64,000 bases of DNA, from assembly GCA_030704615.1 (NCBI GenBank), contig CM060734.1:30194001-30258000 (forward strand), read 5' to 3'. Every line of letters begins with the position of its first letter. Positions within the stretch are counted from its first letter, which is position 1. This DNA comes from Takakia lepidozioides. Taxonomy: Eukaryota > Plantae > Bryophyta. This document shows positions 7,373-64,000 of this stretch, piece after piece. The position numbers and the translations under genes were made by a program. A model generated the notes under the pieces. That model did no database searches and was not told where the DNA came from. It was given only the letters and a program-made list of their open reading frames with translations.

Positions 7373-8331
7373 TGGTTCTTGTTAGATGATCCCCCAGTTT
7401 TCACCTATGAACTAACAAAAAAGAGGTGTCTTTGCTGTGAGAGACTAATGTCTGGTCCGTCCTCCACAGCTTACATAAACAAAAACATGTGTACCTACAA
7501 CTGTCAACTTCCAGTTGTTTTTGCTTCTTGGTCCTCACCTTCACACACATTACAGACTGTCCTTCCTACTTCATCCAGTTGCTCTCCAAAACAACCCACA
7601 GGAGAGGACTGCAAGGAGGACTGAACCTGTGCAAGCTACCTAGTGATTGAGAAGAAGACTCGCATGCAAGAATACCACTGTGAGAAGTTAGCGCCCTCCC
7701 CACCCCGCGCCGCCCCCAACACGTGGCGCTTTGGCACTGCCTCATGTTACTGGTAAGTACCCATCCTTACGTGGGTTTAAGCCATGGTCGGCAGGCTTGG
7801 CGCGTGACGGTGTAAGAGGGGCAGGTAGACGAGAAGGTAAGGGAGATGATGACCGCTACTATTATAAATGCTGTTCAGACACAGGACGGCACAACTTGCA
7901 TGCGATCATTACCACATTCACGCTACAACGTATTTCCTGACCTGGGCAGTTGCTAGGTGAACACTTAGGGAATTCCAAATAGGCCTTGATGTGAAATGCA
8001 GCGCAATTCACTTGATCAGATGCCAATTCTATTGAATTGCGATGCCAATTCAATTGAACTGACCCTAATTTGCAATTCAATTGAATTGCTGACTGCAATT
8101 CAATTGAATTGTAATCTATAATTTTTAACGCAGTTTTGTATATAATATATTATCATGTGTATGTATATGTATATGTATCATATACACATATACATATGAG
8201 AGTATAAGATGAATATACATGCTGGCCCGTCTATTCCTGCTGCCCGTCCATCCTTTGCTTGTGGTAAGGCCTAAGTCACGACATGAGTCGCGTACCCTAA
8301 AGGAGAGATATATACTACACATATATACTAG

Positions 8332-11401: not shown

Positions 11402-14202
11402 CTTTCAAATTCCTCAACTTCCATTCAGCATCCCATGAACCCCACATGCAGCCCGAGTGTTATTACAAGCACGTTATACTTTGGTAAATACTGTTGTTGG
11501 AATGAGGCAAAGCCCTCAAACCTTGGCCAAATGTTTATGCAAACCTCCTTAAACTGCTTGTGAGCTAAATGGGTTTGATGTGCATGCCAGGGCTAGCTCC
11601 ATCTCATTTTTTGGGGGACCCTTTGGGAGACAGATGGCTTACTCAGAAGTGCTTCAGCTTCCTCTGATTCACTGGCAAAAGATATATGGCTACCTCTGAA
11701 AGAAACAAACAATTTCAAACCTCACAATTGATGAATGGCTTCCCCTGCATCATCATGTACTCCCCTGGCACTAGTATCTGGCCCCCATGACACAACCCCA
11801 GAGAAAACAAAAGACATGTTCATTTCGAGAATTATCTCCAATAATCTTGTTTCGATACTCTTGCAAAGGTATCATGTTGCAATTGGGCTGTGTGTTCGAT
11901 AGAGAGTTTAATATATCAACTCTTAGACGTTGATACTCTTACAGTGGTATCATGTTTGGTATATGTACATAGCCATATATTGGCACTATAAGGGCTTGGC
12001 AGTATGAAATTGGTTAGTGTCTCAAGGTGCAGATGAAACATGCTAACATATTTAGATTGTAAGCAACACCCACCAGTCAAACTCATCCTCAGAAGAGATT
12101 GATACACAAAAATTTCTCAGGGTCGTTGGTGCGCAGGCTATCCTAAAATGTATTAGCAAACCACAGTACACAGTGTGGGCAGGTTGAAGACAAACCATGT
12201 GATCAAGCTCTTTCTTTCAGTGTATGTGTTGAGGAGCGTTTGGTAACCCACTCTACTACCCCTAAAGTTCTCTCCTCAAAACTCATGAGTCACCTGCACG
12301 TACACAAGAACTACAGCTTTAGCTAAAATGATATCTTTATCAATGATTGGGGAAACTCATGCCAATATGGGAATGTGCTTACTCATGGGCAGATCTTGTC
12401 ATTTGGTGATCCAAGAAGGCTTCCATCATACATAGCGCCACCACCGCTCCACCACCGCTCAACCCTAAACTTGTTGTTGCATTCTTCTCTCGTTACTTCT
12501 CGTCCTCCAACTGATTTGATCTTTTCACTTTTAGGGCACCTCTGCCCTAAAAACCCTTCATCACTTCATTTCTCTCTCCCTTTCCTCTCTCGCTCTCTCT
12601 CTAGTATATATCTCTCCTTTAGGGTACGCGACTCATGTCGTGACTTAGGCCTTACCACAAGCAAAGGATGGACGGGCAACAGGTATAGACGGGCCAGCAT
12701 GTATATTCATCTTATACTCTCGTATGTATATGTGTATACGATACATATACATATACATACACATGATAATATATTATATATATTATATACAAAACTGCGT
12801 TAAAAATTATAGATTACAATTCAATTGAATTGCAGTCAGCAATTCAATTGAATTGCAAATTAGGGTTAGTTCAATTGAATTGGCATCGCAATTCAATTGA
12901 ATTGGCATCTGATCAAGTGAATTGCGCTGCATTTCACATCAAGGCCTATTTGGAATTCCCTAAACACTCTCACCTTGGCAGGCTGTAATGTGGGCAGTCA
13001 CATTTATCTACATAAACACCCAAGGACGCCCCCCAACGCACACCCACACGTGGGATGCGTCGTATACACAAAAGCAAAGAGACAGACAGGTGAAGGCCAG
13101 GACTCCCCAAAGCATCCCTGCGATTTCCAAGCTAAGTTACTGCCCAGGTACGCCCTGATCTCTACCCTGTCCAGTCTCCATAACTTAACTTACTAGGTGC
13201 GAGTCGAGATCAGTCGAGACTCGAGACAGACCCATCGGATCCCAGTGGTATAAATTACATAAAAGTAAGACAGATGTGAAGATTTCACTAAAACACACGG
13301 GCATTGCGCACAACATTTCTGACTTGTTCACAGATCCCGACTGCCGGGGACTCCCAACTCCAAAGCTTGCAGCTCTCATTGCGAGCCGCTTGAGGCAAAG
13401 CTCGCATGGCGATTCCTCGCAGCGTTGGTGATGAATCTCCCGGTAGCAGCTGCCGACAAAGAGTGATCAGATTTGCGATCCGCAGATTTGAGCACAGGAT
13501 CATCTTCTCCGTGTAAGTACTGGACGAACAGACTCAGTAACGGCTCTGTACATCCAGGCTCATTCATCTGTGCTTCACGTTCCCGAACCCGTGATAAGAT
13601 CAACTTTTACACAATGGCACCTCCTTTCAGAAGGGACGGCTGAGATGTGAGATCAGTGTGGGGAGAGAAAGCACGAAAGCACCGACTGGTCTGGAGTGTC
13701 GACAAAGGGTACACTCGCAGTCGGGCGTTCCTCTCGGTCGTCCTCTCGGTGCAAGCCGCACGGTATGATGAGGGCATCGTGGCTGCTGCCGTCGCCAGTT
13801 TCACAAATTGGAATGCCTCTGGCATGCAGATCTGATTGTTCAGGTAAATTTTCATCCAGGTCTTTGGTTCGGTCTGCAGAGTGGGGAATGATTGATGGTG
13901 AAAATATGCTTGTTAGGCTTTTCCAGGTATCCCGATTTGGATCCTTGGAGTATTTTCTTGCTTGAGAAGATATATTTCGTGGAATCAGCTGTTAGAATTC
14001 GAGCTAGATGGAAGTATGGCTTGTGTTGAATGTGGGAAAGGCTGAAATTGTGTTTTGTTCAGAATTTTGGGCAGATTTTGAGTTGCTGCTTGGACTTGGA
14101 CGTAGGTCTATAAGATAGTTCCTCGTTTGTAATTGCGTTATTGGTGCAAATGCAGGTTGCAGAGTTGTTGCTTCCAATGCTGATGGTTGGACTCCCACTG
14201 GC

Positions 14203-32479: not shown

Positions 32480-33900
32480 AAACCTCCCCCAAGGTCTCAA
32501 AAGACCCTATGTAGCCACACATTAAGTAAACAGTTGATCCGAATGCCCTTTTATAGTTGAATTTGCATTGGTTATGATGGGTAACATCCGACATACACAT
32601 ATGTGGCTTTGATCCCACCAACTATAATTTGTAAGGCGATCTTGTGCCCTAACAATTGGGCTATTTGCTGGATGTTGATAATAGTTGGTGTGTTTGAGCC
32701 GCTTTTTGTGACAACAACACGATATTCTTGAATGTAACATGACATTGTGTATCCTTATCATCGTAGCCCTGCAGTATAATTTATTATCCTTATTATTATT
32801 CGAAACAATGAATGCTCACAAAACTTACAAGGCGTGACAGACACTTAGGGGCCTTGCCACTTATGTAGGTAAGAGATAAATAAACAAAAATTTCTATTCC
32901 CACCAGGCAAGCAGCGACCTGCCGACTAGTATGCATTCGCCACCAAGTGTCTCCTTGCTTGGCTGTCTTGCATTTCTTCAAGCAAGTCAATGAGGGGGGC
33001 AATCCCTTTCTATTCAGCCTGACAGTACTAGTGACCCATGTCCCAAGCAAAGCCATATTGTATAGCAACTCTGGTGAGGTGAAGTAATTGTCAGTTACCA
33101 CCACATGCCCAAGCCCATGCAATCCAGAGACTAGATGAGTGACCACATCATATCCTTCATCTTTGCCAGACTTCTCCCTCATGCCCTGGGGGCCACCGTT
33201 CTTGCCACAATAGACATCAAATCGTACATATAGCTACTGACTGCATCTGCAGGGGCCCAGACTTTTATGCCCCATTTCATTGGCTTTTTGGGCATATATT
33301 GGTGTATGGCACAATATTTTCCCTTATACCTTATCATGATTTCATCCACAGTTAGCAATTTGTTCAAATTCCAATGACATTTGCAAGCACTTGCAATATC
33401 CTCACAAGCCCACCTCACCTTGCCAATCTTGTCGAATGCAGTACTAGTACGATCAGACACCAGGATTAAGTTGTCCACCAAATGCAAGCACCGCAAAATA
33501 GCTTCATACCGATCGTTGGTCATAACCTTTCTAATGACAAGGCATGCAAAAAATACCTCACTTTGCTGCTAGTAGCAGCGGCTGTTGGGCAGCCTCTTTA
33601 TCCTCATGAACAAACACAAGCCAATCCAAGCTTCCAACTTTGTCACAAATCAATGGCCTCCACATTGGCCCACCTTGAGTTCCACATGGCTATATTCTCG
33701 ACAACATACAGATTTGTCTCTCGACAAATTCGATCAAGGATTGTACTCAACCAGAACAATTTGAAAAAAGAACGCACAACAGGAGAGGTCTATGTCATGT
33801 TGCCCAGACAAGGCCCAGGTGCAGGCCCACCAAACAACTCTCTATCAGTACAAAAAGTAGTTTTTGTGCAGTCCCATTTTCCAAGACTAGCAAACAAACT
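32480..33900 (-). mobile_element. piggyBac (PGBD/DDE_Tnp_1_7) transposase pseudogene
   Basis: MTNDRYEAILRCLH...DKIGKVR...LTVDEIMIRYKGK...QYMPKKPMKWGIKVW, then VVTDNYFTS...TVRLNRKGLP; frameshifted. Confidence 0.9.
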
Positions 33901-37159: not shown

Positions 37160-37580
37160 AATTGTTTATATCATGCATGGCTGTCAAAAGTTGAGTGATG
37201 TTTCACCTGGGGTCCAGTACCATGGACATGATAGAATAGTGCTAGTCATTCTTGTCAAAGGGTATTCTTGCGATGTAATCTATCCATGCCAACAGTCTGT
37301 GGTTTCCGTCCCATACAAAGAACATCTTTCCCTTGAATGGCATTGTCACGGGGTTTTTTGAGAATGACTCTTCGACTTCTTCGTTTACCTCCTTCCATCA
37401 AGCACCCCAATCTGCCATCACATCTTCATCCACCATTCTCTTCTTGCCATTGGTGTCCAACAAGAACACATAAAATACTTGAGTCCCCAGCATGTAACCA
37501 TGAATGAAATCGCCTTGAAGATTTGTTATATCGGGCGTAAGGGCAAGTCGAACTGCATGAATGGAAACCATCTGATAGCG
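37160..37580 (-). pseudogene. Orphan ParB-like domain fragment paralogous to 45241-45720
   Basis: MVSIHAVRLALTPDITNLQGDFIHGY...VFYV...FKGKMFFVWDGNHRLLAWIDYI...ITQLLTAMHDIN, with in-frame stops. Confidence 0.85.
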
Positions 37581-37779
37581 AGAGAGAGAGAGAAGACTCC
37601 GGCCGAAGCCGGCGTAACTAAGAGCCACTTCGCCTCATGGCTACTGCCCCTTTTCGGGGGTGGGCCCTATACAGAAAACAGGTGTCCAGGGGACACGAGG
37701 TAACCAGGGGGTAGCGGTACCTAGGGTACCTCTAAGGTACCCAGGGGTATCCTAGGGTACTGTGGGGTATCAAAGAGGG

Positions 37780-38815: not shown

Positions 38816-41800
38816 GCTCGCCCACCAACTGCCCCGAAAATATGCTCAAAAAAAAAATTCAAAAATTCTTTCTGGCTTTTCAACCGCACTACCACTTGTC
38901 AGGCACCACCAAAGTCTCATGGGGTTCCTTCTTGGTCAAATTCCTAGGGCTCAGTTGTAACCCTGTGGCACACATCCTGGCTCTTATGGAAGAAGCAGAT
39001 ATCTACGGGACGCAACCACCTACAGGTTCATCTTGGGTACGGAAAAACATTCTCTCAGAACCAAGAGGGGCTGCCAAACTCAAGCCAAGGTTCAGAGAAA
39101 CTCTCACCAATGCCCTTGCTATGCTAGAAGCAATTGTGGAAGCAGAGATAGATGAGGAAAACCACAAAGGAGACCTCCAGCGAACTCGGGACCACCTCTA
39201 CGGGGCAAGGCCCCCGCCCTCGCCATCTTCCTCATCAAGCGTTTCTGCCCGCTCCGTGGCGCTTGCCCCTTCAATGCCAGGTCAACCAGCTGCATCAGGC
39301 CCTTTGCAGCAAGACACCACACATTCTCCTGCCTCTCCAGCTTCTGCCCATCAAGATCTTCCTCCACTTCAGCCTACAGCTCCAGCTCCGGACCCCAACA
39401 TGGAAGATGTCACCACCAAAATGGACCAGGTTCCACATAACCCCTCCCCTTGCTTCATTTTTTATGCTGACAAAGGAGACTCTAAACGTTGTTGGCTCCT
39501 CTGTCGTAATGAATCCTCCTATCAGTCTGCAGACATATTCCATCCATCTCTCTTCCTACTTCTCTCTCAATACCCTTCTCCAACCAACTCACCCACAACA
39601 TCCCCATTCCCCCTCTTCATCTTCCTCTCCCTCCTGACTTCTTCCTTACCTACACTCATCTGTTATCCATCGACACATTCTAATCAAACCCCACCCAGTT
39701 CGTCCCATCTCCACCTCCACCTACTCTGTCTGACCAAGATACCCAAACTAATGTGGTTATGATCAAGGTTAGGAAGCTCCTGCCTAAACCACCCCCCACC
39801 TACCGATGGGTCAGCTCTTTACTCCCGACAGATCGTACGGTCCCCTTCTTCTTTGACAACCCTGGGCCATCGAATGAGATTAATACCCTCAGCCTTCTAT
39901 TCCACCCACATGTTGATTAACTTATCCTCATGGAACATCAGGGGGTTGGGGCAAGGCCCAGACTCCCTAAAAAACGTCAGGCTTAGGAACTGGCTGCAGC
40001 CAGTGTTCCGCCAAGATGCCATCATTTCCTTTCAAGAACACAAACTAGATACCCAGAAAATTTCAAACCTCACTGACCATCTTTGGCCAATCAACAACTC
40101 TCTCTGGAAGCCAACATCCACCGGTTCAAGAGGGGGTACCGTAATCCTCCTCTCTCCTTCTCTTCACTCCCGCCTCCGTTGTGAGGTTTCATGGGTTCGG
40201 GGAAGGGCCCAATATTGTGCCCTGGACCTACCCAACAACGCAGGAACACTAGGCATAGTCAACGTCTATGCACCCCACTCTACCGCTGAAAGGGCAGACT
40301 TCTGGACTACCCTTGAAAATAAGATGAAAGATGTCGACTACGTAGACGGTTGGGTGGTCATGGGAGACTTCAACATGGTTGAGGCCCCAGAAGACCGGAG
40401 ATGCCCTTCCGCCTTTAACCCAACTATGCCAGAAATGGATAACTGGAACAATCTCTCTCATTCACACAATCTAGTGGAAGCTATCTCTATTTCCCAGAAC
40501 GTACCACCAACAACCCAAATTCCGACCTTCACCTGGTCAAACAACAGAACCTTACCTGACCTTCAAATGGCTAGGCTAGACCGATTTTACTGCTCTTTAA
40601 ACATTGTCCAATGGATAACTAGGAACCCCCATACCCCAATCTTGCAAGGCTTCGACCATGCATTCATTTATGCTCCTCTAAAAATCCCAAACACCCAATC
40701 CAGAGGTAAAGGTATCTACAAACTTAATACCTCTCTCCTCAAAATCCCCTCCTTTAAACAAGGGCTCAAAACATCTTGGTCCCAATCCGGCGCCCTCCTT
40801 CGGGGGGGGGTGCTAGTCCGTGAGTGGGAAGATGCTCACGCCAGAGGTTGTTGGGGTCCACATCCGCGGACGGTGATAACCAGGGGACCTATTTCCGTGG
40901 GAACGAGTGTAAATGTAGTGTGTACCTGGATGTGAAGTTGGATGAACGTTGGATGAATGGTGGATGGATGAAAAATATTGGATGGATGAGAAATATTTGA
41001 TGGATGGTGGATGGATGTTTGTTGGATGTTACATGCATGATGGCTGAGTGTGGGGCGAATAATGGATCATATATGCTGGAACACTGGATGAATGACGGAG
41101 TGTCAAACTTGGAATGGTTGAATTTCGGACAGTTGATGGATGGACTTATGTTTTGGATGCAAGCACAATATACGTACGTATGTGTAAAGTCTGGAAGTAT
41201 TGTGGACCCACAGAGATTGTATGAATGGACTTGGAAGTGTAGATGAAAAATTTTATGTCCAGAAAATGTCTTATGTAGACACTGTTGGAAAGGGAGGCAT
41301 GCATTTGAAGGAAGAGAAGCAATCTCCCCACATTTGATTCCCCAGATACTCCCAAACAGGTGGATCCAATCGGAAAATGTCTATGCACTAGAACTTGTGG
41401 TAGCACCGGACTCCGATGCACAAATGTCCATGAAGATCCTAGCCCTGTTGTCCACATTTTCCACACGATTGAAGCAAACTAGAGGGGGGGAGTCGCAAAG
41501 AGAGAACTTCCTAGCGGCAGCCTCCGCATAGCATGGCAACCGCAGGGGGGCAGTTGGGCTCGGGAAAAATTCCGGGTTAGCATAGAATGGGATGCTTCTC
41601 CTTGTTGTTGGTGTCCTGCAAAGATTCCCGAAGTTGCAAGCCCATAAGCTGAAAGACACTACCGCGCTTGTGACAAAAATGAAGGTATGAATAAATGAAA
41701 AACCCAACATGTCATCCAAAACAAACCGGACTTACGTACACTCAAAGTCGGAGTCCACGTCGAGGTCTTCATCTGGAAGTTCCCGTTCGTCAAAAACTGG

Positions 41801-43529
41801 TTCCTTGTGTGGGGCTGATCCCGAGCCGGAGGTGAGTTGTTGAATCTCGCACGAAAACAGCTCCGCATCCCCCTCCATGCCGAAGAAGTGTCTAACGGCG
41901 CTCTTACAAGCATGGAAAGTTGCACCTGCAAATGCACAGAACGAATGGTCAAAAAACCCAGAATCATTACAAAATTCAAGATTATCGACACGTTAGAGCA
42001 GGAGACTTGGCAGGGCGAACCTGTTCCCAAAGAAAAGTCCACCACCCGCCCCCCATGCCGGCTGCAAGTCTCCACCAGAGTCTGCATAAGTGCTGGAGAT
42101 TTCTCCCGAGCACCTCTCCAAGGGACACCATTCGTCCTTTTGATGGTCCGCCCGGAGTCCACGTAATTGTAGAGGACATCGTCCCCCACACCCTAAACTT
42201 GTGGGGTCGATGTGTGCTGCAAGGTCTCTCAACTGGAACTCCACAATACCTGGAGGGAGGGTGTCCTTTCGCATCCTCACCAAACATAAAGCCTCGAACA
42301 CCCAAGTCTGCATTGCCCCCCCCAAAACATTCAGTTCACGATCATGCATAATGAACTGAACAGAATGAAATTAGCAGAAGAGACAGTCCACCATCCTGAA
42401 CTCACCCTCTGTCCTGGAAACTCTCCCTTGGAAAGTGGAAGAGTGTTGATACACGTTCATGTTTTGATGACCTTAAAGCCGGAAGCTTTCATGTAACTGA
42501 AAAGGGTTCTGCGCGCCTGCATGTCTTTTGACTGCAAAAGAAGAAGTGCTCCTGCATCAGACAAAAATTTGTTGCTGAAGAAAAAAACCCACTGCAGAAA
42601 AGGGCATCTGACTTGTTCCACGATGGTGTTGTGTTCGATGGGAGGACATCCGGCACAGGCAGACCATCTGGAATGTCCAGGACCACCAGGTTTGTTGCAT
42701 ACGCTTGCTGGCTTCCATTCACCCATTCAGGTCTTTTGGTGACATGTTCCACTTAAAAAAACAGTGGACTAGTTAGGAGCAGAACACAATGTTGAACAAA
42801 GTAAAAAATACACCAGGCAAAGTTTTGTGTGGGCACCTTTGTGAGGAAAGAAATTAGGATGTCCCAAGTCTTCGATCTCTCTCCTTTTGAATGTGGATTT
42901 TCTGGATTCCATCATTGCCAAGAAACTCTCGTTAATCACCTCACTTTCATACTGACCCAACACCCGTGAAGGGTGCTCTCTGGCCTCGTAAGGCTGTTCT
43001 TTAGTTTTAGGAGTTCTCCTGTCCTTGCGAGGTGGAGAGGGTTGACGCTCCGTGGTGTCCTGCACAACCTGATCCTGCCCAACCACAATCTTCCCCTTAC
43101 CCTTCCCATCACCTGCGCCCTTCCCTTTCCGTTTGGGAGTGCTACTTTTCTCCGACTCCTTTGCTGCGAGGGCTTGAATTATTCTCTCCTGAATTTCCTT
43201 GTCACTAAGTGGTGCAAGAGCAGCTGCATTGTCGTTGAAGTTGAGCATGACCACCTCCTCGAACGGTGTGTCCTATTTGGGCAAGTCCAGATACCAGCCA
43301 CAATCTCTGAAGTGCGCCCTGCCCCAGTCCTTCGCGATTCCAGCAGTGTACATTGTCTTGTCCTTAGTGGGGTCCGCCCACATGAAAATGAAATCCGGTT
43401 CATCACTGAGGTACTTGCCGGGAATGAGGACATGGCAAATGTACCTGGAAAACACACCCAAATGATCAATTTAGTGAAGGCCAATGTCCAGCAGAATCAT
43501 AGAAGCTGGAAAAAGATAGTACCTCGAAC

Positions 43530-43974
43530 AACCTTGCGTTGACGCAAGGTTGTTTGAGGCATCCCAACAAATTGCCGATACCAGAAATGATATCTCAAAA
43601 TTGGTCTATTACGAGCAAAGGATAGCATTGCGTCAAAGCAAGGATGTACATTGCTCTGAAGTTTAACTTAAATCTGCAGGTAGAATCAAGTCTCAAACAA
43701 CCTTGCGTTAACGCAAGGTTGAAATGAGTTTGTTAAATGAAAATTTATAAGCAGAATTTGAAACGAAGAGACTGCGGACAAGAAGAGAATGAACGGAAAA
43801 TGTACCTCTACGTGCAATGAAATTTCGGAAAATACTGTTCTGCAGGACCTACATTCAACCTTGCGTCAACGCAAGGTTGGAACAAGCCTGGAGAAGCACC
43901 ATACTACCAAACGAAAATCTGTGAAACAAGTGCAGAACTACCAGCCCGATTCAACCTTGCGTTGACGCAAGGTT
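43530..43974. repeat. Intronic array 1 of the 22-bp palindrome AACCTTGCGTYRACGCAAGGTT (5 copies)
   Basis: Copies start at 43530, ~43625 (degenerate), 43699, 43857 and 43953. Confidence 0.95.
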
Positions 43975-45970
43975 AAATTGCGTCTGGAAAGGAACGGCAC
44001 GGCAGACGATCAGTGTAGCCTCACATTGGCAGTCCCAAACCATGCCTTGCAACAATGAGGATAAACGAAACCAAGAAAAGAATCAATGAAGATACATGAT
44101 ACATATACAAGACTCGCTTCATAGCTTGCTCGCTATTGTACTGATTCTTGAACTCATTCAACCTGGAAATGCCTTTGTCTCTTTCAAACTCCCTGAAGAA
44201 ACAATTGTTCCATATTGCACCTTTCCATCTCCGAATGTATTGCTCAAGAGAGATTCAGGGTGTTGTCATTGTGATTTTGTAGTCAGTCAAGGACTCTCCC
44301 AGTGCTGAAATAGCACGCCTTTCTAGCTGTTCCAACAAGGCAAATGTGAGGCTATGGAGCTATGCAACACGGATTCACAAAAAAATGGAGACTGCAAGAA
44401 TGAATTGGTGCTTGCTCTCACCTGGCTCCAGAATGTAGCTTTGTGAAGCCACTAGTTGAAGGAGTGGTCGCTCACCACTTTTACCACATTGGTTTTGGGG
44501 TCTTTCTCTGTTCTTGGAAACCCATACGTGTCCTTCACCAGAGGATCCGAGTTCCAAATCTTCAACCATCTGATTTTGGTTGCGGTGTCCACCATTGAAA
44601 TGGACAGGCGATGCAGTTTCTCTTGTGTCATTTCGGGATTAGTTCCGTACTTGTCGTAATGCACTTTCACCTGCTCTAGGAACTCTGAGCCGGGACCGGG
44701 ATCTGCAATACGGATTTGTTTGTCAAACGCACTCAGCAGGTTCTTTCTGTGGTTATCCATCTCAAACCGGATTGCCTCCGCCACCCCAACAACAGACCTC
44801 TCCTCCTCTGCGTGAGTGGCGTAGTATTCGGCCTTCGCCTTCAAGCCTGTCTCCGTTATCTCTTGCTGCAAACAATCCAACATATAAAACACTTCAGTTC
44901 ACAGCCAATGGAAATAGGTAACAGACAAGTCTGAATTTCAATTCGGTTTAAGTTTCTTTACCGTGTACATGTAGTCAAGAAATGCCTCTCTTGTCAGGCT
45001 ATACCAGGTGACGAGCTTCTTCTCCCTGCATCTCTTCATTTGACTTGGACTCAACACGTTCGCAAACGATTCCAGTGGCATCATACCGATCTTCTGAACC
45101 CGGAAAAGGGTGTGGCAGAGGTTGGTTGTTACGTGGGAGGTTTCGTTTGATCTGCATTGAACAGTCAGTTTTCCAATTAAGAACAAAACAACCACAAACA
45201 GAGCAATGCAATCAAATAATGCACAATAATTTCGGCAGACTTACTTGTTGATGTCGTGCATGGCAGTGAGCAGCTGTGTGACTCGTCCTTTGTGATCCAG
45301 AATAGAATGAACGCTCCAGTGCCAGTTCTTTTCGTCAGAGTGCAATTCCGATATGTAGTCCATCCAGGCAAGCAACCGGTGATTACCATCCCACACAAAA
45401 AACATCTTCCCCATGAAAACTTTCGTGGAAGCCTTCTTGGATAGTTTGGCCTCGAACTCCCTGTTAACTTCACACCAACACGTATCCCAACCTTCCTCTA
45501 TCTCTTCTGATACAGGGCACTCTTCGCCCTTCGTGTCAGTTGTGGAAACATAAAACACCGCAGAACCCTTCACATACCCATGCACAAAATCGTTTTTAAG
45601 TTTCCTTATGTCGTTTCTGAGTGCTGGCCGGACAGCGGGCATCGATATCATTCTGCACAGTGGGATAAGGATGTCTCCACTAGGAATTTCCATGGACAGG
45701 ATGACCTTCGAAGAGTTCACCTTATGTCCCCCGATAGCAGCCTCTGCTCTGTCTGCGTAATGCTCGTCATCGCCTTCTTCATCATCTTCATCGTCTGCCT
45801 CTCCTCCGTCTCTAGCAGGTTCTTTCCTTTTCCTTTTCCTCTGTAAGAAAACGGAAGATCAATCAGTCATTTTGTCTGGTATTGAACATAGTTGTAGATA
45901 AACATGCAGTTGTATGGCCCTAAACAACCTTGGGACAAGTGAAAACGACTCTTCATTTGCAGCCCCAATC

Positions 45971-46873
45971 AACCTTGCGTTAACGCAAGGTTGTTTGTGG
46001 AGATTCCAACAATGGGAAAGGAGATAAATACAGACTTCGCCAGGACTCAGGACACAGGACACAGGACAAAGAACAACAGCCCAAATCAACATTGCGTTGA
46101 CGCAAAGTTGTTTCATGGGGCATACAACTGTGGGGTTGAAGGAGAAAGCAAACATTGGCAAGACTCTCAAACTACCTTGCGTCAACGCAAGGTTGTTTGA
46201 TGAGCTTTAGTAGTTCCAGAATCCATGCAGATGGACACTCGAGTGTTTCTTGGGCTGACAATTTTCAGAGTGAAGACAAAACGAGCCGTTGGGTGTGCTC
46301 TCAAACAACCTTACGTCAACGCAAGGCTGCTTGATGGGCTTTAGCAGTTCCAGAACCCCTGCAGACGGACACTCTAGTGCAGCCCAAAACAACCTTGCGT
46401 TGACGCAATGTTGTTTCTTGGGCTGACAATTTTCGGAGTGAAGGAAAAACGAAGGTTGACCTTGCGTCAACGCGTCAACGCAACGTCAACGCAACCATTG
46501 ATGTCAACGCAAGGTTGTTTCATGAGCCTCAACATTTTGAAAAAACTCTTCAGAAGGACACAGGCCTGCAGCCCGAACCAACCTTGCGTTGACGCAAGGT
46601 TGATTTTGGGATTTGCAACGGTGGGAAAACAAACAATGAATGGGCGAAGCTGACATGGACAGTACATTCGAAACAACCTTGCGTCAACGCAAGGTTGTTT
46701 TGTGGCATTCAAAGGGCAATGTTCTTCTCGATTGTCTGTGTCTGTAACCTGAATCAACCTTGCGTTGACGCAAGGTTGATTTGGGTTGCCTTCATAGAAT
46801 CATGTTCTTGTCAATCAGTCTATATTCGAGCGTTCCAGCAACCAGCAAATCGACCTTGCGTTGACGCAAGGTT
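45971..46873. repeat. Intronic array 2 of the same palindrome (10 copies)
   Basis: Copies start at 45971, 46088, 46173, 46307, 46391, ~46458 (internally expanded gtcaacgc), 46580, 46675, 46756 and 46852, all within intron 45841-46932. Confidence 0.95.
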
Positions 46874-47929
46874 GATTGCTATCTACCAGACAGACTAAAA
46901 CTCAGCTGTGGCAACTGGTACGTCATACATACCTCTGCTTGCTTCTTTGCAGAGCTCGAAGGCGCACCTCCCGTCTGACTCGTCTCCTTCAATTCGTGTG
47001 GTAGGACCGGTCCCAGAAGATCAGGCTGGTGGGTGACAAAACCACGAACTTCAAGCTCCGCTGTCTCTTCCATTACGCGAACCATCGGGGACTGTTGTCT
47101 GAGTCCTTCCCAGGGTTCCTCCTCTCCACCCTCAAAAGACTGAAGCTTGTTGGGCTCCTCCTGCATGGCGGCTAAACCCTCTGGAGACTACCGCGCAACA
47201 ACTCCTCCGGCCTCTCTTTCTTCAACCTCTGCCTTCCCCTCTCCTCCGGCTTGTCCCACCCCGGTGTCCTCTCCCAAATTGAATTCCCTTCGGATCTTCT
47301 TCATTCTCTCCTTCGCCCGCAACCTTTGTTTGCTAGATGTGAAGTACAGAGTTCGGCGATGCCTTCTCCTAGCTCAAGAGGGAGTCTCACTATCGACAGG
47401 ATCCAAGATTGCAGAGAGGGAGAGAAATAGTGGTGCGAGAAAGACGAAATCACTTGCCTCTCCCCCTCCCCTACTGCGCCAAGATGCCAGCTTCGTAGAG
47501 AAGCGGCGGGGTTGCGTGGAGTATCTGCATGCAAGACACGTCGTCCCTGTACGGTCAAGAGTCGCGCTAAAATAAGGTTATTTTAGAATAGAAGTACGGT
47601 CCTAGGAAATTTTTGGTTGTTGCTTCGGTGGTGGTGGCTTCTCCACGTCCTCTGCTCATTCAAAACAAATGAATGAAAACAAGTCTGAAGAAAACCGTTG
47701 GATATAAGCAGTTATTGATTACATAAGATGCCTTGTAAGATGTGTAATGTGGATGGATGAGGATAGATGGCCTAGTGCAAATTGCAATGAAACTGCTCAT
47801 CCACCTTGCCGTGCATCGTCACTAACCTTCCAGTATGGGCGCGTCGATCATGTTGTTTGATGCTATCCCCAGACGTACGGCTCGTTGCTCCACTGCTGGC
47901 ACGCTTTGTTGGACACTGTTCCCGTACTC

Positions 47930-50900
47930 TTGTCTGCTTTACGAATGGCTCTCACAAGAGACTTGGTAAAATTCTACTGTCCTTACAAATCTCTCCCCCT
48001 CACCAAAGTGCCAGACGCCAATGGGATGGCAACCGTTGGAGAGGATGTCCTCTGTAGAAGCTTGGATCTACAAGTTGGAACTGTGCATGTGGAGAAAGAA
48101 GTGCACGACTCCGCCAGTAGAGTCGACAGCATGATGATTCTGGAGCCATTCGTGTGCGAGGACCGTGTCAGACAATGGAGAGTTCCAGCAGGCACTTACC
48201 GCGTGCACGGGGATCAGCGACGTTTGTCTGCAGGTTCTACACTCACTCCAGGAACTGTCGCTTCGGTGGCTCCGGCCTTCACACCTGCTACAATAAAAAA
48301 AAAAGGACACCAGCACATCGACGGCTTTTGTCGATCTCTCGGAAAGCTCTGGTGACGAAGACATCTCTGAGATTCCACCACCTCCAACACATCTATCTTC
48401 TTTCGAAGAACCAGATTTGAAGGAGATAGGCAGTGTCGTTCCAAAGTTGCAGTCTATGAAAGGCTTGCCAAACTGCAGAAATGACGTGCGTGGAATTGCA
48501 TGGGGGACAATAAATATTGTTAGAGCAAAATTCCTTCCCGCAGAATTTGATGGAGATGTGGTTTTTGAGCTGCCCCCTCCGACGTCCTGTGGGGGTTTGG
48601 GGGGACTCATGCAAGGGATGGACAAGAAGCACGACGGACATCCATGGTGTCGAACTAAGACAACCAATATACATAACCCTCATGGCTTGTCTTTCCGTAG
48701 ATCAGTCTGTGTTGGGCACCTACGTTGTGGAAATGAAACATGCCACTGTCTGACATTGAGAGGCTCCCCAAACGAGACGAAGTGGGAGGGTTGCGCGGAT
48801 AACCCATTTGAGGTTGGGTGCCCACCTCCTAAAAATATGACGTTTCTCTGCAAATATTGCAAAACGGCTCCAACATACATTGGCACATGCAAGGCCCGCA
48901 TGTACTATGTGCTCCATCGTTTTCGCGGCCTAACCCGAGCTTGTGTTCATCTCGGTAATCATACCCACCCCGTGTCGAAAGGGGATTGTCGAGAAAGTCT
49001 TGAAACAATTCGGGGACTTCTATGGCACGAGGTGGAGAATGCTCCTTATGCACCGCCATCTGCAATTGCACTTTCTGCAAGCAAAAGCTTCTTATAAAAA
49101 CACATTCTAGGAGGAGCGGAAGAGAACATCGAGAAACTGGACAGCGAAAAACTGGACGTGGTTATGGACTACTTCTCGACCCTTAGTTCACCAAATGTGC
49201 GCAACCAGATGAACACACTCAGAATGGGAACTGGGAGCGCAGGTTATGTGGATAGCATCTTGGAATTGAAGAGGAGAAGCATGTACGACTTCATTCAAGA
49301 CAATGTTTTCCCTGGTCAGGGGTCGTTGAAAGTGTTCTTATTCAAGATGTCCACAGTTGCGGAGGGAAGTGGAGTTAGTTTGGTCCGCAGAATGCAGCCC
49401 GGTGGCGATCTCCAAAAATCCTGGCTCATATTTGATCATGTGAAACGTGTGAAGGGCTGGACAACCATGGCTGCTCATGTGTACGATCCTTCTTACCAAA
49501 GGGTTATGACAATTGCAGTGTGTGACATGCAATCCGAAGACACTGAGTCTCAAATCCTCATGTGGAAGTCCCTTGTGAAAGTCATGAGGAATCATGGTGT
49601 CTTAGATCCAAATTTTCATGGGTTTATGGCCGATAGCGCGCAGACAAATTGGAATGCAGTCCGGTCTGTTTTTGGAAGTGGTGATCCGAAAATACCCATG
49701 GTGGGCAAGGAGCGCACTTGCCTGTTCCATTGGATCCGAAGGTACACTAAGAATTGCATTAAACCAGAGTTGTAGGAGGAACACATGAGACTCTGTCGGC
49801 TGTATAAAGATGCGACAAGCGAGATCGAAGCAAACTCCTTATACCAAACTATAAGGGCATGGTGGTACTCCTTCGTCAAGTCAGGCAGCAAGTCAGGATG
49901 GCCTCAAAGAACTTGACGACTGGATGGAATTCTGGCACTTCAGATACAAACAGTGGGGAGGATTCATGACAAGAGTAAGGTCCCTTCTAAATTTCCAATG
50001 CTTGCAAGAGTTCAATTTGCGGTGTTACCCCTGTTGACGTGTCTTTTCTTCAATGCTATTAGCTTTTGAAGTACACTAATAAATGGAAAGAACATTGTGT
50101 GCAGAATATGTCTCTGGAGGACATAGCGGATATGCCTTCTTGTAATCTATCCGAGACTGTGCATAGTGTGTGGAATGCACAATCCGGCAAGAACGGACGG
50201 GACCTGTACGTTGCCACTTCGGATGACATGGTCCGAGTGCTTTCGCAACAAACATGGTACCGGGATTTCCTTCGTGGACGTGGTTCTGGTAAGGGGCCAG
50301 ACAGGGCAGAGTTGCAGTTGAGGGCTGCAAACAGATGCAAGAATCCTGTTAGAATGGCAAAGGTTGTAAACGAATGCACAATGGGAACACCTTTGCAATC
50401 CAGACATCCTCATCTGGAAGGTGAGGAGAGATTCGGTTCATGCAAGCGCAATCTGGACACCCCTCCGAGATCGGACGAGGATTCACATCGACATGATAGG
50501 GATAACTTTTTGGTGCCACGTGTGCCCGTGCCACCCACTTTCGTGCACGCAACATCCTTTGTGGGTGAATCTTCCTCAACAGAGTTCACAGAGTCGACAA
50601 CTACAACTATACGGGAAGAAGGGGCGAACCTGCTGCCCATCCAGGAGTCTGATTGTGCAGACGCGCTGTGGCACATAGAACGAACTCCGCAAGGCTCAAA
50701 GGTGAAATGTTCCGCTATCAGGGCAACGTCATTTGTGAAGTGCACATCTATGATTTGTAGAGCCCCAGCAGGGACTCCAGCCCCAACTTTCACAGGGTTG
50801 TTCAAGTGCGCGGGAGGCTAGGCTTCACAAGTTTTGGTTTTGTCCTGATGACATGAAACGTTGCGTGATGGGAACTGCCCGTGATTCGGTGATAAGCAAA

Positions 50901-51475
50901 CCTCAAATCCCAAACATTTGGCCAGTTAAGATGGGAACTACACTATCACAGGAAATTGACATGATGGAAGATGCAGGATTTCGGCTCCCAAGAGGACCAA
51001 CTATCATGACGGTTAATTCTTCGCATGATTTCCCTTCCCCGTTTCCTGCGCGCCCTCCACTTGGCAACGACTGGCCTACAAAAAGAAACGGAAAGGTGGT
51101 CCGGCGGGTTGAGGCAGGTGCAGAGCACGAGTGCAAGATTGAATCAGCGAAAACCCTTGAGTGTCGGATCACCCACGTTGCCCAACATGCTACGGACAGG
51201 TGTATAGTATGGTGACGATGGGATCTATTCTTCACAACAGGGCGTACGAGGTAACAGTTTCCAATTTCCCAGATTGCACTTGCCCAGACTTCAAAAACAC
51301 AATCTCCAATTCTCTAGGAAAGAGAGGTAAATTTGTGCTATGCAAACATTTGTACTACATGTACATTCAGAGGATGTTTTGTGATCCAAAAAGAGACACA
51401 TACATTCACCAATGTACGATAGGGCCAGCTGATGTTATGACACTACTTGAGCGAGATAGTACTGCACGAGTTTGA
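47930..51475 (+). pseudogene. MULE-type DDE transposase with GCM/WRKY-like Zn domain and C-terminal SWIM finger, disrupted
   Basis: GHPW...RRSVCVGHLRC...CKYC...C...HLGNHTHP (GCM-like); FDHVKR, GFMADSAQTNWNAV, CLFHW, NLSETVH (D, D, CxxH, E); CTCPDF...CKHLYY (SWIM). Stops at ~49095 and ~49773, plus frameshifts. Confidence 0.85.
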
Positions 51476-54400
51476 GATATTCTCGAGCATGACCTTGCAA
51501 AGCCTGGGCTGCTTTTCTGTGACGTCCGGTGACAGATGACAAAGTCGCGCCTTTGTATGAAAAAGCTTCAGGTTGTTTGATGGTAGCACTTTCTTGACTC
51601 AGAAGCCATCTCCTACCCCATGTCATGATCAAATGAATGGCAATGCTTTGTACACTTTGTACACTTTCCAAATTCGACCGTGCGTTCTAAATATACCCCA
51701 GTCTTACATGGACCTTCACTACTGGCATTGTTTATACGACATGTATATTGTTTTGAACACAAGGTACGTGAACGTCAAAAATCGTTCGAGTTCTTTCAAC
51801 CAAGATGTCATTGGTCTCATCCATTGTATATTCATCCGTATTTTGACGTCCCATCATTCATCCTACATTCATCCCGTAACCATCCAACATTCATCCTACA
51901 TTCATCCATTCCACAAACCCATTCATCCGCGCGGATTTCATCTCGCATAACTCTCAAATTTCCATTCATGTCTTGCATATGTTGCCCCCATAAACCATAA
52001 ACGTCGTCCCCACGGCAATAGGTTCTGCTTTTCCCATGGCTATAGGCTCCGCTTTCATTCTATGCTCACGCTTGCTCACACTTAGGAAATCTGCTCACGC
52101 TTAGCGGAGCGCGCTCACGCGCTAGCTTCCCTCCTCCTTCAGGACCCTATTGAAAGGTTTCAAGCTAGGCTCAAGGTAGTCAGTGTGACTGCTCAAACCA
52201 TGAGCAGGGATTTGGCTCTGGAACGCTCTAGGAAAACCAAAGCTTTAACCAAGTGTCTTGCTGCGTGTCAGTCTCGAATCGAATTTCCCCATTGTGATAA
52301 TCACACTTACCTCACATACCTTGAAGCCAAGCATAATTTAGAATCCCTCCAATCCCTCCAAGAACAGAAACTCAAGCTCCAAGCAGGAGTCAACTGGTCA
52401 ACCAAGGGGGAGAAAATGTCAAAATACTTCTTTGACAAGACTAGGTTACGCAGAGCCTCTCAGAACATTACAGAACTAATTGACCAATCCACTGGTACTT
52501 CTGCCTCAACCCCAAAACAGCTATCCACCCTAGCAAAGATCCACTTTACAAATCTCTTCCAAAGTGACTCTCACGGAGATCTAACCCTCTCTCCTCACCA
52601 ACAAACATGCCTACAATCCACCCCATCCCTGTTACATCCAAACCTATCTGCTTCCCTTGAAGGGGAGCTCACTCTGTTGGAACTAGAAACAGCGTTGCGC
52701 AAAATGCACAATGGGAAATCCCCGGGCATCGATGGAATCCCAGTGGAATTCTATAAATGCCTCTGGCCTGAAATCTCCAGTGACTTTATCTCCATGGCTT
52801 GTAACCCTAGGTCTTCTTCCCCCTTGGGAGGTTCGTTCGTTCATCACTGACTACGGTGTGTGTACCTAATCTGGAGTTTTAATTTTTTTCCCCACAATAA
52901 ACTCAATAAAACTAATTCAGGCCACCCCCCCCCCCCCCCCTGTTCAACCAAAAAAAAAAAAGAAAAAAGAAAAAAAGAAGAAGAAGTATCATGCGATTTA
53001 TATATAGATTTTTAGGGCAACGGGCCTGACCCACTCGAGCGGCCTTAGTGCCTTTTAGGAGGCTGGTTTGCTCCATTGCCCATGTTTCTGCAGCCCCATT
53101 CTCTTCATATACACCTTAGTACTTATCCACTTGCTACAAAATAACAACATCCTAGTCCCCACTCCCACCCCATTCTTAGCTATTGGCTTACTTATTGATT
53201 GCACTTGTTGGTACCATTGTCTAATTAATTATAATACATTGGAGATCGATATGTATTTATGTATGCTGCTGTTTTTTGTGCTAAATAAAGCAGGTATTGG
53301 GACCCCACGTTTTATTTTTAATCAAACTCCAAAAAAACAAGAAAAAAAAGTTTGGCAAAATCGCAAGAGGTGGCATGACCTTGAATGAGACTGGTTAATT
53401 GCACAAAATTGACAACCATGCTATTGTCTGATCATACTATGATCTATTAATATATCCATGTGAGACACCTTCTCCATCTCTTGTCCCAGAATTTGACATT
53501 GAACAGATGTGTAAAATCTGCGAGGGCTAACTTAGACAAGCTTATCATGTTTGTATAGTATGGATGTGGGTATTATTTATCCTGCACGTGTAATGATTCC
53601 TTAACCAATGCGACTCTTATTCTACATGACATTGCATCTCAAGTGTCATCCGTTAAACCATCCATATAAACTCCATGATACCGTAAATAAAAAAGCTTGG
53701 TCAAAGAAGAAAGATATAGGTTTGATTTCAATATTCAAAATATCATTTGGTCCTCATAAAAATATAGCAATTAATTTAAATCAACGGTGAAATGCTCAAA
53801 TTTTTGGTATGTGGAAGATATGCATGAATATGTAAGGTAGGTAGTCTGTAATATATTGGAGAAGGCTTTCAGAAAGCGCACATAATGATGTGTGCGCAAT
53901 GGAAGTCTGTGTTTGTATGTGTAAATAATAGTATAAATTAGTTTTGTGGAAGTCACAGAAAACCCTAAAGAAGTAGAAGGCAATGATATGGGCAATGGTA
54001 GAAAGTAAAGAAGACTTGACCTGTGAAAAATGACAACCTAGAGCTCAAATGTGGAGCCTACAACAAAGCAATTGCCTCCAAAAACCTACATTAGGTCGAG
54101 CCTTAGAGGAAATGGATCTATTCAACTTTGAGTTATATAATTAGAAATAATCTATTTCATGAGTGTTCCTACAAAACTTGAACTTCCCCTTAATGCCCTC
54201 TTCAAAGGTATACTACAATCCACATGAAAGTGTTATCTTGTGCTTCAAATCCGGGTTTTTTGCATGAATTTGGTCACACAGCTCCTTCAGCTATTATTTC
54301 CTCTACACCAGTCATGTAGCCACCACATCAATTGTTCATAGGTCTGAAAAACCTCCATCCCACACCCATGTTGCACATAAGCTAGCCTACCCTATCACCA

Positions 54401-60689: not shown

Positions 60690-63600
60690 GCACGGAGCAG
60701 AGCTGGCATGAGTTTTTTACCGATCCTTCACGATGGTGGGACAACCGCAATCGCAAGGTGTGGCTTTTTCTTAATTTACGATGTGAAGAAGTTTGCCCAT
60801 CCTGGGCTCTTGGCTCCTGTTAGTACCATGATTTGGTATTCTTCCTGATGTTTACAAGGTTCTTGGGAGAGTCAGCTTGGTCTTAGCAGGCCGTGTTTCA
60901 ATCTCTGCCTGCTCAGCTGCACCGTGGTGGTTCTCACAGACCAATCCGACATTACCTGACTATAGACACAAGCAGCACACACAAGAGGTCTTTTTGCGTT
61001 GATGGTCGGTCAAATCCTCCATGGGTCATGACACAAGGTCAAGGACAATGTGGTGAGGGCGCCTTCTTCTTCGACCTATTTCAGCCTGTTTTTCCCTCTC
61101 ATCAGATCGGGCCCTGAATTTGCATATTGAATTCTGTAAGTTAGCTCGTTGGGTGGATCTGTGGTGGTTTGGAGTGATTTTGACAATTTACTGCCGATGT
61201 GGCAGCAGGAAAGTATCCAGAAACAGATAACAGAGATGAGGAGAAGCTTTGGAATGAACACTTTTCCTACCCCAGTCAATGGTGGGACAATGGAGACAAA
61301 AAGGTGAATGCCTGTTGGAAGCAGACGCAAGTCAGCATAGGAACTAGTGTGATAAGTTGAGTTGGGTGTCTCCTAGAACAAATCTAGGCTGTCATTGTCA
61401 GCTGCTAGCAGCAAGGCAAGGATGTATGCATGATCTGTGCAGAGGCATGGATAGCTGAAGGAGCAGGGATAGAGTGTGGGTCCAGATTCATCCAAGAGGG
61501 CCAGATTTCAAGCACAAGATTACCTATGATTCCCTGTGGATCAACAGCTACAAGAAACCTGCATGGGTAGATGGTCAACTGGAAGCAGCAGCAGAAGCAG
61601 CGGCACAATTGATAAAATCAGGCACTGCTAATGAAGGCACATTCTTCAACACATTTCACCCTGTTTTTCCCTTTTATTAGAACTGGCCCTAAATTTCCAT
61701 GTTGAATTCTGCAAGTTAGCTGGTTGAGTGAATCTAGTTTGGAGTGACTTTGACATGATGCTGCCAATGTGAAAACAGGAAAGTATCAAAAAACAGGTAA
61801 CAGAGACGAGGAGAAGCTGTGGAATGAATACTTTTCTGACCCCAGTCAATGGTGGGACAACCGAGGCAAAAAGGTGAATGCCTGTTAGATTACAGAGAGT
61901 AGCAGACGCAATTCCGCACAGGAACTAGTGTGATAAGCTGAGTTGGGTGTTTCCTAGAACAAATCTAGGCTGTCATTGTCAGCTGCTAGCAGCAAGGCAA
62001 GGATGCATGCATGATTTGTGCAGAGGCATGGATAGCTGAAAGAGCAGGGATAGAGTGTGGGTCCAGATTCATCCAAGAGGACCAGATTTCAAGCACAGGA
62101 TTACCTATGATTCCCTGTGGATCAATAGCTACAAGAAACCTGCATGGGTAGATGGTCAACTAAAGGCAGCAGCTGCAGCGGTACAGGTTATAAAATCAGG
62201 CACCTCAACCATGACCACAGCTTCTGGCAGAGGATCAAGAGAGGGAGTCCACAATGCCTCTTCTGGCACTTCTGGGCATGTGAAGATGCTTTGTGAGGCA
62301 GGCAGACTGAAAGAGGCTCTACAGACTTTAAACCAAGGAGGCATTTCAGCAGATTCAGATACGTATGTCTGTCTCTTGCATAAGTGCATCAAGATGAAAG
62401 GCCTGGAAGCTGGAAAGCAGGTGCACACTCACATTATCCAAAGTGGATTCACGCCAAATGTTTTTCTACTCAACACCCTTGTCAACATGTATGTTAAGTG
62501 CAGGAGCATCATGGATGCTCACCAAGTGTTCAACAGAATGCCTCAACGATCTTTGATCACGTGGAATATAATGTTGGCAGGATTTACCAAGCATGGGTGT
62601 GGTAGGAATGCTTTGGAGACCTATGAGCAAATGATGCGCGAAGGGGTGAAGCCCAACCACATCACCTTTGTTAGTGTTTGCAATGCGTGTGCAAGCCTGG
62701 GAGCCCTGGAAAAGGGGAAAGAGGTCCATGGTGACATTCTCAAAGCTGGAATTGTACCAGATGTCATTCTGAACACTGCCCTGGTGGACATGTATGCCAA
62801 ATGTGGGTGCATTGAGGATGCAAAGGGAGTTTTCAACACTATGGCTGAACGAGATGTGGTGTCGTGGAATGCGATGCTTGCAGGGTATGCACAGCAGGGA
62901 CGTGGTATGGAGGCTTTGGAGACCTATGATCAAATGATGGGGGAAGGGGTGAAGCCCGACCACATCACGTTTGTGTGCATTTGCAATGCTTGTGCAAGCC
63001 TGGAAGCCCTGGAAAAGGGCAAAGAGGTGCATGGTGACAGCATCAAAGCTGGAATTGTACCAAATGTCATCCTGAACAATACCCTGGTGGACATGTACGC
63101 AAAATGTGGGTGCATCGAGGATGCAAAGGGAGTGTTTGACACTATGGCTCAACGAGATGTGGTGTCGTGGAGTGCGATGATTGCAGGATATGCACAGCAA
63201 GGGCGCGGGATGGAGGCTTTGGAGACCTATGAGCAAATGATGTGCAAAGGGGTGAAGCCCAACCACATCACGTTTGTGTGCATTTGCAATGCGTGTGCAA
63301 GCCTGGCAGCTCTGGAAAAGGGCAAAGAGGTCCATGGGGACATCGTCAAATCTGGAATTGTACCCGATGTAATTCTGAACACTGCCCTGGTGGACATGTA
63401 TGCCAAATGTGGGAGCATCGAGGATGCGAAGGGAGTGTTTGACAGTATGGCTGAACCAGATGTGGTGTCATGGGGTGCGATGATTGCAGGATATGCACAG
63501 CAGGGGCGCGGGATGGAGGCTTTGGAGACCTATGAGCAAATGATGGCGGAAGGGGTGAAGCCCAACCACATCACGTTTGTGTGCGTTTGCAATGCTTGTG

Positions 63601-64000
63601 CAAGCCTGGCAGCCCTGGAAAGGGCAAAGAGGTGCATGGTGACATCATCAAAGCTGGAATTGTACCAAATGTCATCCTGAACACTGCCCTGGTGGACATG
63701 TATGCCAAATGTGGGAGCATGGAGGATGCGAAGGGAGTGTTCAACAATATGGCTGAACGAGATGTGGTGTCGTGGAACGCGATGCTTGCAGGGTATGCAC
63801 AGCAGGGGCGCGGGATGCAGGCTTTGGAGACCTATGAGCAAATGATGGGTGAAGGGGTGAAGCCCGACCACATCACGTTTGTGTGCGTTTGCAATGCTTG
63901 TGCAAGCCTGGCAGCCCTGGAAAAGGGCAAAGAGGTGCATGGTGACATCATCAAAGCTGGAATTGTACCAAATGTCATCCTGAACACTGCCCTGGTGGAC
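60690..64000 (+). CDS. PLS-class PPR protein (probable organellar RNA-editing factor) with three N-terminal OSB-type PDF motifs; 3' end outside the window; apparent frameshifts
   Basis: Exons encode WHEFFTDPSRWWDNRNRK|TNPTLPDYRHK, LWNEHFSYPSQWWDNGDKK|IHPRGPDFKHK...LW and LWNEYFSDPSQWWDNRGKK|IHPRGPDFKHR...LW. The last exon (62067 on) continues into L-S-P triplets of 101 aa. 1-nt shifts at ~60975 and ~63620; start codon unresolved. Confidence 0.85.

Follow-up and report, generated by a model that had tools for sequence, protein, structure and literature searches.

Why should a 22-bp palindrome recur some 15 times within two introns of one transposon gene while the DNA between its copies diverges? 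The question is raised by a 64,000-nt stretch of the genome of Takakia lepidozioides (Bryophyta; GenBank assembly GCA_030704615.1, contig CM060734.1, positions 30,194,001 to 30,258,000 of the forward strand; referred to below as the window), in which an 11,330-bp Mutator-like element (MULE), a DNA transposon, carries the palindromes in its accessory gene. With a probability of roughly 60%, we read the palindromes as parS-like candidate sites for the element's own ParB-methylase, a predicted fusion protein, through which the element would be marked or shielded and would escape silencing. The broader claim, that the sites are bound by the element's ParB-fold protein, be it as a marker or as a repressor, we regard as quite likely.

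Palindrome copies and their conservation

A scan of the window for AACCTTGCGT-YR-ACGCAAGGTT, allowing three mismatches or fewer, returned 13 full copies of this 22-bp palindrome from 43530 to 46873, each with 0-2 mismatches, and the maximum count in 100 dinucleotide shuffles of the window, which served as control, was 0. Together with a 14th, decayed copy at 43624-43645 (4 mismatches) and a split or rearranged one with half-sites at 46458 and 46507 (span 46458-46516), they make up the "about 15" copies reported by an earlier, sequence-only reading of this stretch. The full copies form two clusters, four at 43530-43974 and nine at 45971-46873, in which start-to-start distances are 81-189 bp, near the 80-160 bp first noticed, and spacers measure 59-167 nt. 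All lie in two introns, with no copy in an exon or beyond the element, as that reading had also stated; the remaining 52 kb that were scanned yielded none. The window contains 16 perfect inverted repeats whose arms measure at least 9 bp; 10 of them are palindrome sites, and certain copies reach 28-30 bp of symmetry.

The two flank types described beforehand, cagccc.aa.c before TG- or TA-centred copies and tc.aaac before mostly CA-centred ones, are readily visible. The centre is TG in seven of the 13 full copies, CA in four, TA in two and CG in none, matching the GTYRAC centre proposed for them. This YR centre could stem from decay of an ancestral CG, from loop inversion by template switching, or from a need for a flexible YR step or for GTYRAC as such. 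GTYRAC alone is unremarkable, with five occurrences in the rest of the element (0.52/kb) versus 39 outside it (0.74/kb), and its resemblance to a HincII site is a lead only.

The arms agree with the consensus at 253 of 260 positions, and agreement outside them falls to 92/130 (71%) at 1-5 bp, 131/260 (50%) at 6-15 bp and 179/390 (46%) at 16-30 bp. Among the spacers of intron 1, five pairs can be aligned at 65-85%, against 97% for the arms, which points to growth of this array through tandem duplication; at the cut-off of z > 4, no pair that includes a second-intron spacer qualified. The description of the spacers as "much more divergent" than the motif therefore holds as a comparison with the arms, although the intron-1 spacers are not unrelated to one another.

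Other genomic copies point the same way. Using genomic contigs of run X1, we compared depth in 41-bp bins over intron 1, setting nine motif bins against seven pure-spacer bins and excluding the other 14 (exon edges, motif flanks and a rearranged stretch). Median depth was 6,221 (439-65,694) in motif bins and 555 (198-1,013) in spacer bins. The 13-15 copies per element could by themselves explain the ratio of about 11. They do not explain the sum over the nine motif bins, about 113,800 depth units where some 8,300 would be expected from spacer-sharing elements alone at 15 sites each; this excess is to be read qualitatively, as summed contig depth is inflated by overlapping short contigs and does not equal copy number. 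Many differing flanks run off the motif in these contigs. A diverged 522-nt contig of run X6, taken as one record from equal length, depth and strand, differs 40 times over 199 nt from the exon that follows the second intron, and in it a motif appears to be retained some 140 nt ahead of the same acceptor, the DNA between being unaligned. Of 35 intron-1 variant rows, drawn from 40 of 91 rows in all, one falls in a palindrome against about six expected, a deficit given little weight since the rows are incomplete and contigs break at the motif. The spacers are thus not as conserved as the motif, and because the motif outlasts them both in the window and in diverged genomic copies, plain recent duplication is insufficient to account for the array.

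The seven changes in the 260 arm positions leave all 52 CpG bases untouched, so that, as noticed earlier, the arm CpGs are intact (26/26). Such retention has a probability of 0.21 at equal rates and of 0.02-0.003 if CpGs mutate 3-5 times faster, which speaks mildly for selection acting on the motif or for its protection. Shielding from deamination of 5-methylcytosine (5mC), also suggested by the sequence-only reading, would apply to the motif at most: the spacers of intron 1 have a CpG observed/expected ratio (o/e) of 0.41, with no halo around the sites.

The accessory gene and its predicted protein

The palindromes lie in a spliced gene on the minus strand, divergent from the transposase gene, with introns that we infer from sequence and homology. 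The putative first exon (46933..47370) is of low complexity and its start codon is not fixed; it leads through a consensus donor and a phase-0 join into intron 1 (45841..46932, 1,092 nt, GT..AG, in-frame join), which would contain nine full palindromes, at 45971, 46088, 46173, 46307, 46391, 46580, 46675, 46756 and 46852, and the split copy. Exon 2 (45245..45840) encodes the predicted ParB/Srx-fold domain, with a DGNHR motif at 45376-45390. Exons 3-5 (44103..45151), a helical middle region with short introns nearby (45152-45244, 44866-44961 and about 44360-44400), were placed by tblastn with P0012, the best full-length relative, a 1,147-aa Ceratodon protein with PF01555 at its C-terminus. The second long intron (about 43445..44102, ~658 nt) has palindromes at 43530, 43699, 43857 and 43953 besides the decayed copy, and in tblastn the protein frame runs in register with P0012 across it. 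The 3' exons (41700..43444) encode a linker and the predicted beta-class amino-methyltransferase domain, with a motif IV-like DIPD at 42666-42677 and a motif I-like DFSLGTG near 42020-42039.

The GT..AG ends and phase-0 join of intron 1, and the continuity of the Ceratodon relative across the second intron, bear out the intronic placement claimed at the outset. Of two runs guessed as RNA, one had a single contig on intron 1 and the other none; neither showed a splice joint, and both are uninformative on expression. Four premature stops (near 44451, 44254, 43272 and 42456) and a frameshift (near 42594) mean that the accessory gene is dead in this copy. P0012 has matches in 856 protein clusters (50% identity), most of which are fragments, and the named relatives come from Ceratodon (moss), Riccia (liverwort) and Selaginella (lycophyte). 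The family is represented in the window once more, by an isolated ParB-like fragment (37164-37604, minus strand; 39% to P0012, 3 stops) that has no palindrome copy nearby and is flanked by GGTACC-rich short repeats at ~37690-37775.

The protein is predicted to fuse an N-terminal ParB/Srx fold with a beta-class amino-DNA-methyltransferase fold. The N-terminal model is that of the relative P0003, built on an alignment of 90 with a mean predicted local distance difference test (pLDDT) score of 79. In a VIA structural search its top eight matches are all of ParB/Srx fold (Z 7.4-5.3), the next, unrelated match scoring 4.0; PadC comes first (Z 7.4, root-mean-square deviation (rmsd) 3.0, 98 aligned) and KorB second (7.3). 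Nearly all top Foldseek rows are likewise ParB/Srx, the best being Noc bound to its DNA site (E 5.5e-3), with an alignment that spans both Noc domains, but at 13 Å rmsd. The middling scores of VIA and Foldseek agree with each other and with a GNHR box that 50 of the 56 motif-bearing proteins retain. Sequence searches of Pfam and PDB left the ParB domain unrecognised, and the middle region had no ESM Atlas match above 0.78.

ParB, Noc and KorB combine a ParB/Srx-fold N-terminus carrying a GxxR box with a helical region behind it, and they have multiple palindromic sites; the Takakia system shares the predicted fold, the box, a helical region and multiple palindromes. It differs in its longer site, in having GNHR rather than GERR, in the fused methylase fold, in yielding no helix-turn-helix, and in having no ParA ATPase among the 14 element reading frames scanned, the coding space being filled by two other genes. 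Palindromes of 16 bp are the binding sites of ParB and Noc, which spread from there, in mammalian cells as well (PMC11109969).

At the other end of the protein, structural comparison pairs the C-terminal domain of P0012 with CcrM (Z 18.3, rmsd 4.3, 223 aligned) as well as with other beta-class enzymes, and the domain matches PF01555 at E 4.9e-7. The window sequence aligns with P0012, P0090 and P0155 over both methyltransferase motifs, which stand in the beta-class order, IV before I. The same fold and motif order are found in CcrM, M.BceJIV, M.MboIIA, M.RsrI, M.PvuII, rotifer N4CMT and Marchantia DN4MT1. A search for short relatives of the methylase domain found none.

Self-binding weighed against its alternatives

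The parS- or operator-like dimer sites put forward by the sequence-only reading gain real support from a ParB/Srx-fold family gene holding the palindromes and from a motif far better kept than its spacers; binding itself is predicted. On our reading, the protein would bind the 22-30 bp site as a dimer, clustering of sites would raise occupancy, and the protein would spread over the element much as ParB, Noc and KorB spread from their sites. The methyltransferase domain would then add N6-methyladenine (6mA) or, less likely, N4-methylcytosine (4mC), or would act as a non-catalytic shield. Expression or mobility of the family would be favoured and host silencing opposed, and intact copies might serve broken ones in trans. 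Introns would be the sole long non-coding room within the gene, and because of this the arrays could expand there by tandem duplication without damage to the protein. The most literal version, in which a bacterial-type ParB-parS clamp operates in land-plant chromatin, loads at the intronic palindromes, slides, writes 6mA or 4mC (possibly at GTYRAC) by means of a non-canonical catalytic motif, tags family members as self and counters 5mC silencing, is unlikely.

Several observations count against this reading. The ParB-fold Z scores stay below 8, middling by the tool's scale, and no Foldseek row gets as low as E 0.001. In the canonical ParB nucleotide-binding box, GERR, asparagine here replaces the glutamate. 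No helix-turn-helix was found, the helical part after the ParB domain gave weak, unrelated structural matches only, and in the full model this helical region is poorly predicted (mean pLDDT 54). At 22-30 bp, the site exceeds the 16-bp parS. CpGs next to the motifs are not spared, the intron-1 spacers resembling the rest of the window, and the whole element's CpG o/e of 0.68 (second intron, 0.67; host long interspersed nuclear element (LINE), 0.43 and 0.33; remaining window, 0.45 and 0.41) is equalled by other 2-kb blocks of the window (0.66-0.73). The death of the accessory gene in this copy and the qualitative nature of the depth comparison belong on the same side. So does methyltransferase motif IV, catalytic and typically (D/N/S)PP(Y/F/W), which reads DIPD in the window and is canonical in 0 of 6 distinct relatives listed (DTPF, DMPD, DQPF, DAPE, DMPS and DVPE). 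Because this motif is non-canonical, the methyltransferase may be inactive, and we judge catalytic activity to have somewhat less than an even chance. The family pattern, DxP[D/E/F/S], differs from the TSPPY of Marchantia DN4MT1 (bioRxiv 10.1101/2021.02.12.428880). Transposon-borne DAM methylases with intact pockets, of another enzyme class, produced no increase in 6mA on expression in E. coli (bioRxiv 10.64898/2026.05.21.726589), so a negative heterologous methylase assay would be indecisive.

The alternative that survives best retains the binder and reverses its effect: the palindromes would be negative-feedback operators through which the same ParB-fold protein represses the element from its own introns, in a KorB-like manner, and limits copy number. 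KorB is the second-best structural match of the N-terminus (Z 7.3, tied with PadC), the sites lie within an accessory gene transcribed divergently from the transposase, motif IV is degenerate and local CpG sparing is absent, all of which would suit a repressor. The element family is abundant, however, a methyltransferase fold with a kept S-adenosylmethionine-binding-like motif would be superfluous in a simple repressor, and VANC, the known analogue with intronic arrays, activates. We consider repression quite unlikely.

That the palindrome has no function, having spread through tandem duplication and owing its symmetry and uniformity to template switching and gene conversion, is distinctly improbable. 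Tandem duplication of the units is evident, genomic copies commonly show changes in copy number between sites, and TG and CA centres alternate among same-orientation units, as loop inversion or ancestral-CG decay would yield. Template switching nevertheless equalises arms within one copy, not 13 copies across two introns; these introns are 2 kb apart, with spacers no longer alignable between them, and family members that have diverged, with different spacers, still carry the motif.

If instead the transposase or a host factor were the binder, the location of the sites in a ParB gene would be incidental. No recognisable DNA-reading domain was found in the ParB-fold protein and its binding is predicted, which would leave room for such a factor. 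Yet 0 of the 13 sites lie near the element's ends, which have different subterminal repeats of their own, the palindrome is absent from the rest of the window, and ParB genes co-occur with inverted-repeat arrays in algal elements that have other transposases. Another binder is very improbable.

The smallest likelihood among these falls to a structural role, either as pre-mRNA hairpins that aid splicing or give rise to small RNAs, the alternative named by the sequence-only reading, or as DNA cruciforms. Intron 1 does fold strongly, with neighbouring copies pairing, and the outer five flank pairs co-vary slightly (89.6% of cells paired, a fraction that 3-4 of 500 shuffles reached), with two-sided change in 3 of 14 pairs. 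By contrast, the nine core pairs never show a two-sided change in the 13 copies on either strand, and it is therefore the sequence, not pairing alone, that is fixed. Folding is expected of any multi-copy palindrome, no Rfam family was found at cut-off (three sub-threshold hairpin matches are taken as chance), and the flank co-variation fits template switching in inverted repeats (PMC8604942) or symmetric recognition equally well. A CRISPR-like guide array is ruled out by spacers that are non-uniform in length and interrelated at 65-85%; the array spacers have no meaningful match elsewhere in the window.

Carrier element, related systems and neighbouring features

The carrier spans 40802..52131, as defined by its ends, its target duplication and a genomic contig without the insertion, which joins 40792 to 52132 in the endonuclease/reverse transcriptase frame of the host, an L1-type LINE (LINE endonuclease PF03372). 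MULEs are marked by target-site duplications of 9-11 bp and a DDE transposase (D, D, CxxH, E; often with SWIM). The 9-bp duplications here (40793..40801 on the left, with one mismatch to 52132..52140 on the right) fit that size and rule out a Sola transposon (4 bp in Sola1-1_Ec32). The left end (40802..41160) has a short imperfect terminal inverted repeat followed by subterminal GCTCACR and TGGATG repeats, and the right end (51814..52131) has subterminal CATCCA and GCTCACR repeats before its terminal inverted repeat; the terminal inverted repeats are about 20 bp and imperfect, accompanied by inverted subterminal repeats, and no long one is present.

The MULE-type transposase gene (47972..51475, plus strand) is broken and retains D, D, CxxH and E-like motifs with a weak SWIM match (E 0.009). 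Its relatives (134 matches) have identities of 51-66%, and the FDH, ADS and CxFH columns conserved in 37 relatives fit the Mutator D-D-CxxH-E pattern. The ten best family-bearing ESM Atlas matches of the relative P0192 belong to the MULE family or clan, with scores (0.91-0.93) below the recognition mark; Pfam gave no MULE match in 10 transposase relatives, and the transposase core went unrecognised in Pfam and PDB sequence searches. The frame at 47972-48304 (plus strand), upstream of the main transposase open reading frame, matches the N-terminus of the relatives and therefore belongs to the transposase, set off by a frameshift, rather than forming a third gene. Run X1 contigs cover all 30 element bins at a summed depth of ~900-33,000, far above the ~50-75 of single long contigs, indicating a multi-copy element. 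A distinct 20-bp inverted repeat lies between the divergent accessory and transposase genes at 47567-47586. The ParB-like relative P0008 and the transposase relative P0302 are both listed with a longest contig of 275,659, a hint only of linkage elsewhere.

As an analogy, VANC/VANDAL is the tested functional counterpart of the proposed self-marking: in Arabidopsis, VANC21 binds arrays of its motif within introns of the Mutator-like element that carries it (PMC5735166), and a study of red-algal elements names VANDAL as the sole transposon for which binding and modification of its own sequence are known (bioRxiv 10.1101/2025.02.11.637652). Common to both systems are a Mutator-like carrier, an accessory protein and dense, tandem-duplicated motif arrays in introns or non-coding parts. 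VANC, however, has a 9-bp non-palindromic motif in one orientation, causes 5mC loss and has demonstrated binding, whereas the Takakia site is a 22-30 bp palindrome and its protein is predicted to have bacterial-type ParB and methylase folds.

The design itself has already been published for algae; particular to Takakia are the Mutator carrier, the intronic position and the long, sharply defined site. The Plavaka element of the red alga Bostrychia moritziana encodes an accessory protein, PAG3, with an N-terminal ParB-like domain and has tandem inverted-repeat arrays beside the gene, for which self-binding and self-modification were proposed (bioRxiv 10.1101/2025.02.11.637652). The likeness extends to a transposon accessory gene, an N-terminal ParB-like domain and inverted-repeat arrays; in Plavaka, an EnSpm-type carrier with arrays adjacent to the gene, ParB is joined to a putative 2-oxoglutarate oxygenase and the methylase is separate (PAG2), whereas Takakia has a MULE carrier, intronic sites and a predicted fusion of ParB to the methylase fold. 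Sola1-1_Ec32 of the brown alga Ectocarpus encodes, opposite its transposase, a ParB-like protein of ~1,100 aa with an N4C/N6A methyltransferase, likewise proposed to bind and modify its own element (PMC12477816). The resemblance, drawn from its description, lies in the ParB-like and methyltransferase protein and its orientation; the carriers differ (Sola, 4-bp target duplication, versus MULE, 9 bp), and a palindromic array is unmentioned in the main text and the supplement rows found (PMC12477816). Chlorophytes and chytrids have ParB-helix-turn-helix fused methylases of another clade (PMC4738411, a 2015 review).

Wider searches gave little beyond the plant family. A metagenome motif scan returned two matches, both unrelated bacterial chance occurrences (a terminator-like hairpin and a recombinase coding sequence). 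Viral contigs held neither palindrome matches nor relatives of the accessory or transposase gene, prokaryote genomes no relative of the ParB domain, and phages two weak matches to the methylase part only. The literature searched, which covered few subscription journals, contained no report of a land-plant ParB-methylase transposon or its palindromes.

In land plants, the locus thus pairs a candidate site that is long, exact and strongly conserved with a fused protein as candidate writer, and thereby opens the proposal of self-binding by ParB accessory proteins to direct test. If self-marking is true, it would extend to a large transposon family in early-diverging land plants (the 856 clusters, mostly fragments), might contribute 6mA or 4mC to plant genomes, and could provide a compact, site-specific, spreading epigenome tool.

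Elsewhere in the window, broken fragments of a piggyBac-like transposase lie at 32799-33568 on the minus strand (PF13843, E 3e-19 and 4e-12), a superfamily uncommon in land plants. Pentatricopeptide repeat (PPR) and COBRA genes identify the window as land-plant DNA. A PPR reading frame at 62040-64000 (plus strand) consists of a 303-bp tandem unit in 4.6 copies that are 91% alike, and has an N-terminal match to a transposase-associated domain, PF13963. An identical perfect 18-bp palindrome occurs at 8072-8089 and 12839-12856, 4.8 kb apart, possibly within paired long repeats. An exon of a COBRA-like protein (PF04833), a host plant gene, lies at 5507-6028 on the minus strand.

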